A stretch of DNA of 64,000 bases from Escherichia coli (lineage in GTDB: Bacteria > Pseudomonadota > Gammaproteobacteria > Enterobacterales > Enterobacteriaceae). The notes beneath the pieces are model-generated. The model made no database searches. It was given only the letters and a program-made list of their open reading frames with translations, and was not told where the DNA came from. Of the stretch, positions 21,874-28,526 are shown piece after piece (positions within the stretch are counted from its first letter, which is position 1; each line of letters starts with the position of its first letter). The position numbers were made by a program, and so were the translations under genes. The stretch lies in assembly GCF_003018255.1 (NCBI RefSeq), contig NZ_CP027440.1. One strand, given 5' to 3'.

Positions 21874-24800
21874 TTAATAATCTCCAGTAAAGCCTGCACA
21901 GGATGGCGTACCCCCGTGCCTTCGACCCGTTTTACCTGGCTACGGCAGGAATATCCGGTCGCCAGACAGCGATTACGCGGCAGTCGCTGCATCGCCTGAT
22001 GCCAGGATAACTCATAGATCCCGAGCGAATTTTTATGGTTTTTCGCTTCATGTCCGTAAGTCCCTGCCATGCCGCAGCACCCCACGCTGACATTTTCCAG
22101 TTTCGCGCCAAAACGGGCAAATATCGCAACCCATTGTGCTGGCGCGCCCGGCAAAGCGGTAACTTCGGTACAGTGACCAAAGAAATACCATGATTCACCG
22201 CTGACTGTAGCCACTGGCTGTGAGTCAAGTGCGCTTGCCAGCCATTCATTCGCCAGTAAGACGTTAAACTCGCCACGTTCCTCGCCCAGCGCCAGTTTAT
22301 ATTCATCGCGATAACAAAGTACCAGCGCCGGATCGACGCCCACCATTGGCATCCCCAGCTTCGCCATACGGTTGAGGAAATCCGCCGTCTTTTTCGCCGT
22401 CTTCGCAAAACGATTAAGAAAGCCTTTGATATGCTGGGCTTTGCCATTTGGCGAAAATGGCAGTAACACAGGCTGGAAACCTAATTTTTCAACCAGACGG
22501 ACAAAATCCGCCACCACTTGCGCATCGTAATAGCTGGTAAAGGGGTCCTGCACCACCAACACCGTGCGCGCTTTCTGCTCTGCATTGAGAGCTTCAAGCT
22601 GTTCCAGCGTCATATTCGCCGAGCGATGCCCCACCATTTGTTGTTGTAGCGAGGGGACTGACAGCAGTGGCAAATCAACCATGCCGATATGTTTTTCCGA
22701 GAGCTTGCGCACCAGCGGCTGGTTAATGAAGAAGTTAAAGGTTTTCGGCGCGCGTGCCATCAGCGGTGCGTAGCTCTCGACCGTAGCAACGAGGTGGTCA
22801 CGAAGCGGGCGTAAATAACGGGTGTGATAGAGCTGCAGAAAACGAGAGCGAAACTCCGGCACATCAATTTTGATGGGGCACTGGGTCGAACACGCTTTAC
22901 AGGCAAGACAGCCCGACATCGCCTCTTTGACTTCGTGTGAGAAGTCGTATTCGCCTTTATTCGCATGCCAGCTATTGCGCGTGCGGGCAATTAACGTCCG
23001 CAAACTGACGCCGGATTCAGGCAGTTCTTGTTCCAGTTTGAGTGGGTCAACGCCGCGATCCGCCAACAAGCGCAGCCATTCACGCACCAGCGTTGCGCGC
23101 CCTTTCGGTGAATGAATCCGGTTCTGGGTGATCTTCATCGACGGACACATCGAACTACGGGCATCAAAGTTGAAGCATAAACCGTTGCCGTTACACTCCA
23201 TCGCACCGCGCCACTGCTGGCGTACCGCAATGGGGATCTGCCGATCGAATGTACCGCGCTTCACCGCGTCCACTTTCATCATCGGCGCATCGAGACCTTC
23301 TGGCGGGCAAATCTTCCCTGGGTTGAGTCGGTTATGCGGGTCAAATGCCGCTTTCACTTTGCGCAGTTCTGCAAAAAGTTCCTCACCGAAAAACGCAGGG
23401 CTGTATTCGGCACGAAAACCTTTGCCGTGTTCGCCCCACAACAAACCACCGTATTTCGCGGTAAGCGCCACTACGTCATCAGAGATTTGCTTCATCAAAA
23501 TCTCTTGTTGCGGATCGCACATATCCAGCGCAGGACGGACGTGCAAGACACCTGCGTCGACGTGACCGAACATACCGTAGCTTAAGCCGTGGCTGTCGAG
23601 CAGCGCGCGAAATTCAGCAATATAATCGGCCAGATGTTCCGGCGGTACGCAGGTATCCTCAGCAAACGGAATTGGCTTAGCGGCACCTTTGGCATTGCCA
23701 AGCAGACCAACGGCTTTTTTGCGCATCGCATAGATACGTTCAACACCCGCCAGCTCGCGGCACACCTGCCAGCCAATCACACCTGCCTGTTGGCTGGCAA
23801 TCAGTTCATCCAACCGCGCACAGAGTGCATTTACCCGCTCATCAATCAGCGTCTCATCATCACCAGCAAATTCCACAATGTTCAGCCCGAGCATTTCTTT
23901 GTCAGGCACATCGGTAATCAACTCGCTGACGGAATGCCAGACAATATCTTCCCGCGCCAGATTCAGCACTTTTGAGTCCACCGTCTCTACCGAAAGCGCC
24001 CGCGCCTCAACCATAAACGGCGCGTTACGCAGCGCGGAGTCAAAAGAGTCATATTTGACGTTCACCAGACGGCGCACTTTAGGCAAGGGCGTAATATCCA
24101 GCCGCGCTTCGGTAATAAAGGCCAGCGTCCCTTCTGAACCCGTCAGAATGCGCGTCAGGTCGAACTCGGTCATCTCATCGTTAAAGACATGACGCAGATC
24201 GTAACCGGTAAGAAAGCGGTTAAGTTTGGGGAAGTTGTCGATGATTAACTGGCGTTGCTGACGGCAACATTGATAAACCGTGTTATAAATTCGCCCGATT
24301 GCGGTATTGGTTTTACCCAGCGTTTCTGCCAGTTCGACGGGTAAAGGTTGCGTATCGAGAATATCGCCCCCCAACAACACCGCGCGTACGCCAAGTACGT
24401 GATCTGACGTTTTGCCATAGACCAGCGATCCCTGACCGGATGCATCGGTATTGATCATCCCACCGAGCGTTGCCCGGTTGCTGGTCGAAAGTTCCGGCGC
24501 AAAAAAGTAGCCGAACGGTTTCAGGTACTGATTGAGTTGATCTTTTATCACCCCGGCCTCAACGCGCACCCAGCCCTCTTCAGGGTTAATTTCGATGATG
24601 CGGTTCATATGGCGGGACATATCAACAATAATCCCCTGGTTGAGCGCCTGACCGTTAGTGCCGGTGCCGCCGCCGCGGGGGGTAAAGATCAGCGATGAAT
24701 AGCGTTCCTGCGCGGCAAGACGGGCTATAAGCGCCACATCTGCGGTTGAACGCGGAAATACCACCGCATCGGGGAGAAGTTGGTAAATACTGTTGTCGGT

Positions 24801-24926
24801 CGACATTGTCAGACGATCGGCATAACTTGTCGCCGTATCGCCGGTAAAACCTTGTTGCTCCAGCTCTTGCAAAAAATTAAGCACCAGTTGAACGACGCCG
24901 GGTGCCTGGGAAATCTGTGGAATCAT
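21870..24926 (-). CDS. ydiJ: FAD-linked oxidase fused to Fe-S/CCG domains (D-2-hydroxyglutarate dehydrogenase family), 1018 aa
   Basis: Track ORF extends to 24998, but the ATG at 24926 gives MIPQISQAPG; cysteine cluster CLACKACSTQCP. Confidence 0.9.
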   Translation of the reverse strand: MIPQISQAPGVVQLVLNFLQELEQQGFTGDTATSYADRLTMSTDNSIYQLLPDAVVFPRSTADVALIARLAAQERYSSLIFTPRGGGTGTNGQALNQGIIVDMSRHMNRIIEINPEEGWVRVEAGVIKDQLNQYLKPFGYFFAPELSTSNRATLGGMINTDASGQGSLVYGKTSDHVLGVRAVLLGGDILDTQPLPVELAETLGKTNTAIGRIYNTVYQCCRQQRQLIIDNFPKLNRFLTGYDLRHVFNDEMTEFDLTRILTGSEGTLAFITEARLDITPLPKVRRLVNVKYDSFDSALRNAPFMVEARALSVETVDSKVLNLAREDIVWHSVSELITDVPDKEMLGLNIVEFAGDDETLIDERVNALCARLDELIASQQAGVIGWQVCRELAGVERIYAMRKKAVGLLGNAKGAAKPIPFAEDTCVPPEHLADYIAEFRALLDSHGLSYGMFGHVDAGVLHVRPALDMCDPQQEILMKQISDDVVALTAKYGGLLWGEHGKGFRAEYSPAFFGEELFAELRKVKAAFDPHNRLNPGKICPPEGLDAPMMKVDAVKRGTFDRQIPIAVRQQWRGAMECNGNGLCFNFDARSSMCPSMKITQNRIHSPKGRATLVREWLRLLADRGVDPLKLEQELPESGVSLRTLIARTRNSWHANKGEYDFSHEVKEAMSGCLACKACSTQCPIKIDVPEFRSRFLQLYHTRYLRPLRDHLVATVESYAPLMARAPKTFNFFINQPLVRKLSEKHIGMVDLPLLSVPSLQQQMVGHRSANMTLEQLEALNAEQKARTVLVVQDPFTSYYDAQVVADFVRLVEKLGFQPVLLPFSPNGKAQHIKGFLNRFAKTAKKTADFLNRMAKLGMPMVGVDPALVLCYRDEYKLALGEERGEFNVLLANEWLASALDSQPVATVSGESWYFFGHCTEVTALPGAPAQWVAIFARFGAKLENVSVGCCGMAGTYGHEAKNHKNSLGIYELSWHQAMQRLPRNRCLATGYSCRSQVKRVEGTGVRHPVQALLEIIK

Positions 24927-25314
24927 TATATTGACCCTTTCCTGCGGTCTGTGATGTAGGTCGATACACTGTTCTTTCAGGCGGCTGCAATAGCGCACTG
25001 AAAGGTGATGTTTGTTTACTCTATGGATTTCGTGTTGCAGGAAGGCGGCAAGCGAGTGAACTCCAGGAGCTTACAACAGTAAGTAACTGGGGTGAACGAA
25101 CGTAGCCGCAGCATATGCAACTTGAAATACGACGAGTAAATCGTTTGCGTGTTGCCTGAGTTGTTGTACCACATTTTTTTCTAACACGCCCATCAGAATT
25201 AAGGGCAGAATCGGCCTGTTAAAAACCGCTGAAATTGCTCATCATTATGCAGGTGAGTTTCGCGTGTTCACGTCGCGTCGACGATTTGACGCACAAAAAA
25301 GGTGAAAAGTAGTT

Positions 25315-26427
25315 ATGGTAAATGTTCGTCAGCCCAGGGATGTCGCACAAATTCTGCTTTCGGTGCTGTTTTTAGCCATCATGATTGTGGCATGTCTGTG
25401 GATTGTTCAACCCTTTATTCTCGGCTTTGCATGGGCCGGTACAGTGGTTATCGCCACCTGGCCGGTATTGTTACGTTTGCAAAAGATCATGTTTGGCCGC
25501 CGCTCTCTCGCCGTTCTGGTGATGACGCTGTTATTAGTGATGGTGTTTATCATCCCTATTGCCTTGTTGGTTAACAGTATTGTCGATGGCAGCGGTCCGC
25601 TAATTAAAGCCATTTCCAGCGGTGACATGACGTTACCCGATCTGGCGTGGCTTAATACCATTCCGGTGATTGGCGCGAAGCTATATGCAGGCTGGCACAA
25701 CTTGCTGGATATGGGGGGTACGGCGATCATGGCGAAAGTCCGTCCTTATATTGGCACCACCACCACCTGGTTCGTTGGGCAGGCGGCGCATATCGGGCGC
25801 TTTATGGTGCATTGTGCGCTGATGCTTCTCTTCAGTGCCCTGCTGTACTGGCGCGGTGAACAGGTGGCACAAGGCATTCGCCATTTTGCAACCCGTCTGG
25901 CAGGCGTTCGCGGTGATGCTGCTGTGCTACTGGCGGCACAGGCTATCCGCGCGGTGGCGCTGGGTGTGGTGGTGACGGCGTTAGTACAGGCAGTGCTTGG
26001 CGGTATCGGCCTCGCCGTATCCGGCGTACCTTATGCAACTTTGCTCACGGTGTTAATGATCCTCTCCTGCCTTGTCCAGCTTGGACCGTTGCCGGTACTG
26101 ATTCCGGCGATTATCTGGCTCTACTGGACCGGTGATACCACCTGGGGAACGGTATTGTTAGTGTGGAGCGGTGTGGTTGGCACGCTGGATAACGTCATCC
26201 GCCCAATGTTAATTCGCATGGGTGCCGATTTACCGCTGATCCTGATCCTCTCTGGTGTTATTGGTGGTTTGATTGCTTTCGGGATGATCGGCCTGTTTAT
26301 TGGTCCGGTTCTGTTAGCCGTTTCCTGGCGTCTTTTTGCCGCGTGGGTGGAAGAAGTCCCACCGCCGACGGACCAACCGGAAGAAATTCTCGAAGAACTT
26401 GGCGAAATCGAGAAATCGAATAAGTAA
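25315..26427 (+). CDS. ydiK: AI-2E (PerM) family membrane transporter, 370 aa
   Basis: Multi-TM hydrophobic ORF; synteny. Confidence 0.9.
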   Translation: MVNVRQPRDVAQILLSVLFLAIMIVACLWIVQPFILGFAWAGTVVIATWPVLLRLQKIMFGRRSLAVLVMTLLLVMVFIIPIALLVNSIVDGSGPLIKAISSGDMTLPDLAWLNTIPVIGAKLYAGWHNLLDMGGTAIMAKVRPYIGTTTTWFVGQAAHIGRFMVHCALMLLFSALLYWRGEQVAQGIRHFATRLAGVRGDAAVLLAAQAIRAVALGVVVTALVQAVLGGIGLAVSGVPYATLLTVLMILSCLVQLGPLPVLIPAIIWLYWTGDTTWGTVLLVWSGVVGTLDNVIRPMLIRMGADLPLILILSGVIGGLIAFGMIGLFIGPVLLAVSWRLFAAWVEEVPPPTDQPEEILEELGEIEKSNK

Positions 26428-26433
26428 TTTCTC

Positions 26434-26458
26434 ATCAGGCGGCTCTGCCGCCTGATTG
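26434..26458 (+). terminator. Weak terminator hairpin after ydiK
   Basis: Stem atcaggcggc/gccgcctgat with only a short T tract. Confidence 0.35.
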
Positions 26459-26612
26459 TTAACCCCTGCTAATTGATATTTGCTTGCTCTTCCCCATATT
26501 TTCCTGCTTACCGCCATTCAGCTGGTAGTACCTGTCGCAAATTCTTTACAGTTTTTAAACTAATGAGACGAATCTGATCGACGCAAAAAGTCCGTATGCC
26601 TACTATTAGCTC

Positions 26613-26717
26613 ACGGTTATAAATCAACATATTGATTTATAAGCATGGAAATCCCCTGAGTGAAACAACGAATTGCTGTGTGTAGTCTTTGCCCATCTCC
26701 CACGATGGGCTTTTTTT
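26613..26717 (+). ncRNA. rprA: RprA small regulatory RNA (RpoS translational activator), about 105 nt
   Basis: Sequence ACGGTTATAAATCAACATATTGATTTATAAGCATGGAAATCCCCTGAGTGAAACAACGAATTGCTGTGTGTAGTCTTTGCCCATCTCCCACGATGGGCTTTTTTTT recognised as RprA, with terminal hairpin and T-run. Confidence 0.9.
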
Positions 26718-26855
26718 TAACATTTTTCCGCTTTGCTATCTCGCCCCTCACGCTTTCCAATAATGTTGCACAAGATACTGTGACTCTCTTCAAGCCGTCA
26801 GCAGGCTGATAATGTTATTTATATTTTATTGTTTATTTCATGCAGCCATTACACG

Positions 26856-27212
26856 ATGAACGCTTATGAACTCCAGGCACTTCGCCATATTTTTGCCATG
26901 ACTATTGATGAATGCGCGACCTGGATTGCCCAGACCGATGACAGTGAAAGCTGGCGTCAGTGGGAAAATGGCAAATGCGCCATTCCTGATCGTGTAGTCG
27001 AGCAACTGTTGGCTATGCGTCAGCAACGAAAAAAACATCTTCATGCCATCATAGAGAAAATAAATAACCGCATCGGCAACAACACCATGCGTTTTTTCCC
27101 CGACTTAACCGTGTTTCAACAAGTCTACCCTGATGGCAATTTTATTGACTGGAAGATCTATCAATCGGTAGCCGCTGAATTATATGCACACGATCTGGAG
27201 CGGCTTTGTTAA
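26856..27212 (+). CDS. ydiL: Uncharacterised protein, 118 aa
   Basis: Track ORF begins at a TTG at 26829; the ATG at 26856 gives MNAYELQALRH. Confidence 0.8.
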   Translation: MNAYELQALRHIFAMTIDECATWIAQTDDSESWRQWENGKCAIPDRVVEQLLAMRQQRKKHLHAIIEKINNRIGNNTMRFFPDLTVFQQVYPDGNFIDWKIYQSVAAELYAHDLERLC

Positions 27213-27311
27213 TTTCTCCACACAAAGGAATTGTCTTTGTTACAACAATAATGAACGGATACTGACACAACATCTCTACACTTTTTAAAGCACCTTTGCT
27301 AAGTAGAACCT

Positions 27312-28526
27312 ATGAAAAATCCCTATTACCCTACCGCACTTGGGTTGTATTTTAATTACCTGGTGCATGGTATGGGCGTCATTTTGATGAGCCTGAATAT
27401 GGCCTCGCTGGAGACGCTTTGGCAGACTAATGCCGCGGGCGTCTCGATAGTTATCTCATCACTGGGCATTGGTCGATTAAGTGTCTTGCTTTTTGCAGGA
27501 TTATTATCCGATCGCTTTGGTCGCCGCCCTTTTATCATGCTCGGGATGTGCTGCTATATGGCCTTCTTTTTTGGCATCCTGCACACCAATAACATCATTA
27601 TCGCTTATGTTTTTGGCTTTCTGGCGGGAATGGCAAACAGTTTTCTCGATGCAGGCACCTATCCCAGTTTGATGGAAGCTTTTCCACGCTCACCGGGTAC
27701 AGCCAATATTTTAATTAAAGCATTTGTTTCCAGCGGACAATTTTTATTACCGCTAATTATCAGCCTGTTAGTGTGGGCTGAACTGTGGTTCGGTTGGTCC
27801 TTTATGATTGCCGCAGGCATTATGTTTATTAACGCTCTGCTTTTATACCGTTGTACGTTCCCACCCCATCCGGGTCGTCACTTACCTGTCATAAAGAAAA
27901 CCACCAGCTCTACGGAACATCGCTGTTCAATTATCGATTTAGCCAGTTATTCCCTATATGGCTATATCTCAATGGCAACGTTTTATCTGGTTAGCCAGTG
28001 GCTGGCACAATACGGACAATTTGTCGCCGGCATGTCATACACCATGTCGATCAAATTACTCAGTATCTACACCGTGGGTTCGCTGCTTTGTGTATTTATT
28101 ACCGCTCCACTCATTCGTAATACCGTTCGCCCAACAACATTACTGATGCTGTACACCTTTATCTCATTTATCGCCCTGCTCACCGTCTGCCTGCATCCCA
28201 CATTTTATGTGGTGATAATATTTGCTTTCGTCATCGGTTTTACCTCCGCAGGCGGTGTTGTACAAATTGGCCTGACGTTAATGGCGGAACGTTTTCCCTA
28301 CGCTAAAGGAAAAGCAACGGGGATCTATTACAGTGCGGGCAGCATTGCAACCTTTACTATTCCGTTGATTACGGCTCATCTTTCGCAAAGAAGTATTGCC
28401 GATATTATGTGGTTCGATACCGCCATCGCTGCCATCGGCTTTATACTGGCACTGTTTATTGGCTTACGCAGTCGCAAAGAAACGCGGCATCACTCGCTAA
28501 AGGAAAATGTCGCTCCGGGTGGGTAA
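27312..28526 (+). CDS. ydiM: MFS transporter, 404 aa
   Basis: 12-TM MFS-like hydrophobic profile with D-R/K motif (SDRFGRRP). Confidence 0.85.
   Translation: MKNPYYPTALGLYFNYLVHGMGVILMSLNMASLETLWQTNAAGVSIVISSLGIGRLSVLLFAGLLSDRFGRRPFIMLGMCCYMAFFFGILHTNNIIIAYVFGFLAGMANSFLDAGTYPSLMEAFPRSPGTANILIKAFVSSGQFLLPLIISLLVWAELWFGWSFMIAAGIMFINALLLYRCTFPPHPGRHLPVIKKTTSSTEHRCSIIDLASYSLYGYISMATFYLVSQWLAQYGQFVAGMSYTMSIKLLSIYTVGSLLCVFITAPLIRNTVRPTTLLMLYTFISFIALLTVCLHPTFYVVIIFAFVIGFTSAGGVVQIGLTLMAERFPYAKGKATGIYYSAGSIATFTIPLITAHLSQRSIADIMWFDTAIAAIGFILALFIGLRSRKETRHHSLKENVAPGG

Follow-up and report, generated by a model that had tools for sequence, protein, structure and literature searches.

The hairpin in the Escherichia coli ydiJ–ydiK spacer is a polymorphic ERIC/IRU repeat located within the ydiJ 5′ leader

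The palindrome between the divergent genes ydiJ and ydiK in the 64,000-nt stretch of E. coli DNA that we analysed (contig NZ_CP027440.1; hereafter the window) is a full-length copy of the ERIC/IRU repeat. It is an element of an ordinary, already described kind, a textbook dispersed repeat and not a new regulatory structure, and it occupies the spacer as an insertion that is polymorphic in E. coli. We consider it very nearly certain that this ERIC copy inserted beside the motif ATCGTTTGCG and is transcribed in the ydiJ mRNA, with the leader growing from a predicted 54 nt to 229 nt. A sequence-only reading of the same DNA had seen no known element here and had proposed a structured 5′ leader or a regulator binding site; the first of these statements was wrong, as the full-length match to the ERIC consensus and profile and the dispersal of the sequence show. 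The flanking genes had been named correctly: ydiJ lies on the minus strand with its start codon at 24926, and ydiK on the plus strand with its ATG at 25315. In the K-12 reference record the spacer between them is without any annotation. The value of the present analysis is mostly that it corrects the reading of the hairpin, which, being a textbook dispersed repeat, should not be chased as a new riboswitch or operator. The element consists of the following parts.

25015–25140, plus strand (ERIC2-sense core): full-length ERIC/IRU element of 126 bp, from consensus alignment and nhmmer profile
25015–25039, no strand assigned: left terminal inverted-repeat arm, 25 nt, pairing with 25116–25140 and 76% complementary to it
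25116–25140, no strand assigned: right terminal inverted-repeat arm, pairing with 25015–25039
25056–25098, plus strand: conserved ERIC core with the ERIC1R and ERIC2 primer targets and both copies of gtgaac, from primer matches

The family, also called IRU or RU-1, was reportedly described by Sharples & Lloyd in 1990, Hulton et al. in 1991 and Wilson & Sharp in 2006. ERICs are MITE-like sequences of ~127 bp with terminal inverted repeats, TA ends and a TA duplication; they form a single long stem-loop, and as RNA hairpins they act through RNase E on the genes next to them (PMC3184786, PMC2759123, PMC2267715). The window element resembles them in its length of 126 bp, in its sequence along the full length including the invariant central core, in being an imperfect palindrome that folds into one long stem-loop, and in its dispersed intergenic copies. 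It is extragenic within a transcribed region, between ydiJ and ydiK and inside the mapped ydiJ 5′ UTR, and filled and empty sites are both found among related genomes. Nothing essential sets it apart, although this copy is fairly diverged, lacks 1 nt in the core, no longer has intact TA termini, and is adjoined by an unexplained segment of 48–60 bp.

In an end-to-end alignment, the element shares 101 of 127 positions (79.5%) with the E. coli consensus of 127 nt that Wilson & Sharp published, in the form given by Delihas 2007 (PMC2759123); its identity to SeRU-1, the reference copy from Salmonella, is 83.5%. Against an ERIC profile of 127 positions, built from 83 independent canonical-length copies with the window locus excluded, nhmmer matched 25016–25138 to model positions 2–125 with 100.7 bits (E 1.2e-32). 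Searching metagenome contigs for the core yielded 101 distinct copies, and the window element aligns end to end with ~100 of these. The ERIC-PCR primer sequences are printed verbatim in 246 papers, and both have a match in the core that is not expected by chance: ERIC2 at 25077–25098 with 3 mismatches, and the reverse complement of the ERIC1R core at 25063–25076 with 1 mismatch. The divergence extends to the ends, where the left terminus reads TTTACTC vs TATACCC in the family and the right terminus GAGTAAA vs GGGTATA. This copy therefore has TT...AA in place of the family's TA...TA; the empty site does contain a TA (GATTAATCG). When the window's diverged copy was used as the query, the 136-nt region was detectable in 5425 of the 5426 complete E. 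coli genomes, the median number of places in a genome being 10 (range 2–15); the number of ERIC copies given for K-12 is 19–21 (PMC2267715). In the literature searched we found no link between ERIC and either ydiJ or ydiK.

Two other repeat or RNA families were considered. The REP consensus differs from the ERIC consensus. REP/BIME (PU) sequences are also enterobacterial, intergenic, palindromic and transcribed repeats, but the REP unit is ~40 bp long (PMC2267715) and without sequence similarity to the window element. An Rfam scan of 24000–27500 gave no family at threshold on the element, with the unrelated RprA RNA (see below) as the only one to pass. The model of RF02818 (V_AS5, Vibrio RNA AS5) matched 25014–25136 on the plus strand over its full length (model positions 1–129) at 32.9 bits, and membership of that family was rejected because the gathering threshold of 96 was not reached. 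Since ERICs are present in V. cholerae (PMC2267715), V_AS5 is probably itself ERIC-derived, which suggests that this Vibrio "antisense RNA" family was built on an ERIC-type repeat.

The pairing that had been noticed by eye, between GTTGCA...GCGGC (25035–25050) and GCCGC...TGCAAC (25106–25122), is real and present in the minimum-energy fold. Its extent had been drawn too small, as it forms the centre of the 126-nt imperfect palindrome 25015–25140. As plus-strand RNA the element folds into a single long hairpin of -55.1 kcal/mol (z -6.8), and as minus-strand RNA it reaches -38.6 kcal/mol (z -4.6); in both cases none of 200 shuffles was as good. Across 82 copies of the family, compensatory changes were seen in 19 of 30 predicted pairs of the hairpin, and all 82 folded better as the plus strand (means of -54.6 vs -43.7 kcal/mol). 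The window ERIC is transcribed in the less well folding, minus-strand orientation, at -38 vs -53 kcal/mol. No intrinsic terminator, which would be a short GC-rich stem with a T-run after it, was found within 25015–25140.

To place the element relative to transcripts we used a single dataset of transcription starts, that of Kim et al. 2012 (PMC3415461, Table S1), obtained by exonuclease (TEX)-enriched 5′ RACE sequencing of mid-log MG1655. The published 5′ ends were mapped onto the window exactly, with 0 mismatches.

25155, minus strand: main ydiJ start, 49 reads, 229-nt 5′ UTR (PMC3415461)
25006, minus strand: second ydiJ 5′ end, 25 reads, 80-nt 5′ UTR (PMC3415461)
25253, plus strand: proximal ydiK 5′ end, 2 reads, 62-nt 5′ UTR, with a CATTAT -10-like hexamer upstream (PMC3415461)
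25085, plus strand: ydiK 5′ end in the centre of the ERIC, 3 reads, 230-nt 5′ UTR (PMC3415461)
24798, plus strand: ydiK 5′ end inside the ydiJ coding region, 4 reads, 517-nt 5′ UTR (PMC3415461)
25163–25171, minus strand: inferred ydiJ extended -10 promoter TGgTACAAC, directly upstream of the mapped start and conserved across genera

With the ydiJ start at 25155 on the minus strand, the ERIC (25140 to 25015) begins 15 nt downstream and lies wholly inside the 229-nt leader, which shows that it forms part of the ydiJ transcript. Start-site mapping, proposed earlier as a check for both genes, thus brought the element into the ydiJ mRNA, whereas the proximal ydiK start at 25253, weakly supported by its reads, excludes it from that transcript (PMC3415461). 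The plus-strand 5′ ends at 24798 and 25085 are probably noise. The block TTGTTGTAyCACATTTTTTT around the ydiJ -10 is conserved across genera, and we infer from this conservation and from its position that 25163–25171 functions as the ydiJ promoter.

For the 229-nt leader, folding predicts two hairpins that total -61.9 kcal/mol, one from the ERIC at nt 16–141 and one from a second segment, described below, at nt 152–181. The second ydiJ 5′ end corresponds to nt 150 and lies 9 nt past the ERIC, where the two predicted hairpins are joined by the single-stranded, A-rich linker CAAACAUCA; it could mark either processing of the transcript or a weak promoter. Such a linker is a typical endonuclease context, and the 25006 end may have arisen by cleavage in it, just past the ERIC hairpin. 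The TEX library is enriched for primary (triphosphate) ends, which argues somewhat against processing. On the other account, the ERIC now serves as a promoter that faces outward, and its terminus has created a true start at 25006, which gives strains with the longer spacer a second ydiJ promoter. The 25 reads in a TEX-enriched library speak for this, as do the location 9 nt beyond the end of the element and a TAAACA hexamer at -12 to -7. However, the hexamers are poor, with 3/6 matches at both the -10 (where TAAACA is the best candidate) and the -35, and a strict sigma-70 consensus scan flagged no promoters, though it also missed the extended -10 of the mapped ydiJ start. The position in the single-stranded linker fits a promoter less well, and a 5′ end beside a hairpin can survive TEX treatment. 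We therefore regard a second promoter as a minority possibility, albeit one to be kept in mind.

We compared the locus among 5423 E. coli genomes that contain it, of which 4255 carried a long allele with the ERIC and ~1168 a short allele (~78% vs ~22%). The short allele is 175 bp shorter, with 11 nt (ATGAGAGATTA) in place of 186 nt of the long allele, and the indel exceeds the 126 bp of the ERIC. In 80 loci from other Enterobacterales (~70 species), the orthologous spacers are typically 196–213 bp long and without the element. Many Citrobacter spacers are exactly 213 bp long and have TTGTGAATTTA at the position of the short-allele 11 nt; the counterpart in C. amalonaticus is TGAGAGTTA. This homology marks the short allele as an empty site of ancestral type. 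E. albertii, E. whittamii and Escherichia sp. E1V33 share the long allele, which makes the insertion an old one that predates the diversification of E. coli; Escherichia sp. MOD1-EC7003 carries the short form. Because the termini have decayed to TT...AA, the target duplication of the window copy itself is unreadable.

The sequence by which the indel exceeds the ERIC amounts to 48–60 bp gained beside it, and includes the following segment.

24957–25004, no strand assigned: single-copy segment, gained or absent together with the ERIC and absent from short alleles and outgroups

This companion segment is bracketed by GTGATG direct repeats (24951–24956 and 25005–25010) and contains a 7-bp stem, CTTTCAG-17 nt-CTGAAAG. 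It occurs once in each of the 4255 long-allele genomes and only there. In a search against the ERIC profile (nhmmer --max, E<=10) it had no match, and among 1.35 Mb of fetched loci it matched only its own locus. We also considered the extra ~60 bp to the left as the remnant of an ERIC that had decayed or lost internal sequence, comparable to a fragment beside the copy of Enterobacter sp. JUb54, and rejected this on the grounds that there is no profile match and no occurrence beyond the locus.

The distribution of the two alleles can also be read in the opposite direction, with the short allele as a secondary deletion of the ERIC-containing segment rather than a retained empty site. The early date of the insertion, which follows from the long allele in E. 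albertii, E. whittamii and E1V33, is compatible with such a loss, and the GTGATG repeats at the borders could have mediated it. However, the short-allele 11 nt are homologous to Citrobacter sequence and absent from the long allele, and a deletion would not recreate them, which makes this reading quite improbable.

The same comparison bears on the two functions first proposed for the hairpin. As a structured 5′ leader, the proposal held in part: the element does lie inside the 229-nt ydiJ 5′ UTR and is predicted to fold, but it is neither a leader specific to this locus nor an operator. At this locus the pairing is not conserved in the spacers of related genomes, because the whole element is missing from them, an outcome that the sequence-only reading had named as refuting its proposal; outside Escherichia only independent ERIC insertions supply such a structure. 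A dedicated RNA leader (a riboswitch, thermosensor or attenuator) evolved to control ydiJ or ydiK would agree with the strong structure and the location in the ydiJ 5′ UTR, but ~70 other enterobacterial species and ~22% of E. coli lack the element in the orthologous spacer, the same sequence occurs at ~10 or more sites per genome, and no Rfam family reached threshold; copy number and presence/absence at the locus effectively refute it. A palindromic operator for a regulator of ydiJ or ydiK can be given practically no weight either, since dyad symmetry in a divergent promoter region is here that of a multi-copy 126-bp palindrome far exceeding operator length, downstream of the ydiJ start and upstream of the ydiK start, with a conservation that tracks the repeat family rather than the locus.

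The short repeats noticed in the region are present as reported, with cgtgttgc at 25031–25038 and 25148–25155 and gtgaac at 25056 and 25093, but they are incidental. The cgtgttgc copy inside the element is a lineage-specific variant of the ERIC arm, where the family consensus has TCGAGTTGC, and the other copy belongs to the ancestral flank, so that the repetition is coincidental. As both copies of gtgaac are part of the conserved ERIC core, neither sequence was retained as a candidate binding motif.

In a profile scan of the orthologous loci we found that ERICs entered the ydiJ–ydiK spacer independently in several lineages, as listed here.

L042, Enterobacter sp. JUb54, 914–1038: ERIC
L048, Enterobacter genomosp. 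O, 904–1027: ERIC in inverted orientation
L052, CACSKA010000003.1, 791–914 and 1031–1155: two ERIC copies
L019, C. amalonaticus S646, 845–1046: ERIC split by an internal insertion of ~83 bp

Four insertions, that of Escherichia included, abut the same few nucleotides to the left of ATCGTTTGCG, and one of them is inverted. The second copy in L052 shows a clean TA duplication, with GGATT-TA-[TACCC...GGGTA]-TA-TCATC vs the empty GGATT-TA-TCATC in L057. Repeated capture near the ATCGTTTGCG junction suggests either a target preference or a site at which insertions are tolerated or selected. ERICs have landed at the ydiJ–ydiK junction repeatedly, in more than one genus, which bears on the mechanism of ERIC mobility.

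Several other features of these loci were seen in passing. The record of L052 is titled Chryseobacterium sp. 18061, yet it contains enterobacterial ydiJ and ydiK (83–87% identity to E. coli) along with its two ERICs, and the assembly is probably mislabelled or contaminated. The loci of Salmonella enterica arizonae and diarizonae (L017 and L021), with spacers of 263–264 bp, have a different, GC-rich insertion of ~50 bp (CCCGACCCGGCGAGCGCGAGCAG...) upstream of ydiK at the same junction. Internal insertions of the ~60–85-bp kind are known from some ERICs. We observed GC-rich internal insertions of ~60–85 bp in one arm of the ERICs of L088, L095, L101, L112, L113, L118 and L120 (an example of the inserted sequence is TTTGAACAGCGCTTGCGCTGGCCCCGTAAGGGGCGAGGCC...), and a GC-rich internal insertion likewise lies in an ERIC arm at 916–1012 of L019.

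A non-autonomous palindromic MITE, the ERIC inserted in an ancestor of most Escherichia beside the ancestral motif ATCGTTTGCG, and a unique segment of 48–60 bp was gained along with it. Together they lengthen the ydiJ leader, which at the empty site is predicted for the same start to be 54 nt long and unstructured (-6.3 kcal/mol, z 0.1), to 229 nt and give it two large predicted hairpins. In Yersinia, ERICs influence the stability of mRNA (De Gregorio et al. 2005, from the summaries in PMC3184786 and PMC2267715). Those repeats belong to the same family, are co-transcribed with a neighbouring gene and form an RNA hairpin, as in the window. According to the summaries of that work, RNase E cleavage was proposed near the Yersinia hairpin, and in the window a second 5′ end lies 9 nt past it. 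The same summaries place the Yersinia ERICs downstream of genes, where they act on the upstream mRNA, whereas the window ERIC is in a 5′ UTR. By this analogy, the minus-strand ERIC hairpin may alter the processing, stability or translation of ydiJ mRNA. Equally, the ERIC may be a tolerated passenger with little effect.

In its strongest form, the proposal is that the ERIC and its companion act as a natural regulatory switch, in which the double-hairpin leader and the new 5′ end at 25006, made by an RNase or by a promoter, give a different ydiJ expression; we hold this to be doubtful. If true, the ~78% of E. coli with the ERIC would express D-2-hydroxyglutarate dehydrogenase unlike the ~22% without it, and the recurrent, independent capture of ERICs at the same few nucleotides in at least four lineages would mean either that the element prefers this target specifically or that a structured ydiJ leader is selected for. 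Since the copy is polymorphic and lies inside a mapped 5′ UTR, the locus offers a convenient natural test of the effect of an ERIC on expression in E. coli.

Farther along the spacer, the palindrome cgtcgacg is present at 25276–25283 as had been noted, and proved to be the E. coli version of part of a conserved dyad that is separate from the ERIC.

25275–25292, plus strand: conserved hairpin GCGTCGA cgat TTGACGC in the ydiK leader, from a 42-sequence alignment with an explicit stem

This real, conserved dyad would most simply be an RNA hairpin in the ydiK leader, ~10–15 nt upstream of the ydiK Shine-Dalgarno sequence and inside the 62-nt leader, the start of which was mapped with 2 reads. Because loop lengths differ, RNAalifold recovered 3 pairs only, and the hairpin was instead assessed with an explicit stem and slide controls. 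In the 42-sequence alignment, 84.4% of cells were paired, vs 22–45% with slid partners. Five of the 7 pairs change on both sides; for one pair, 20 sequences have C-G and 17 have U-A. A GC-rich hairpin is found at the same position in most genera with differing stem sequences (GCGTC..., GCGCC..., CGCCAG..., TGCGCCC...), and is followed by a T-rich run in Enterobacter and an A-run in E. coli. Downstream of ydiK, the small RNA RprA lies at 26613–26720 on the plus strand (Rfam RF00034, 118.5 bits, full length), an expected neighbour in E. coli.
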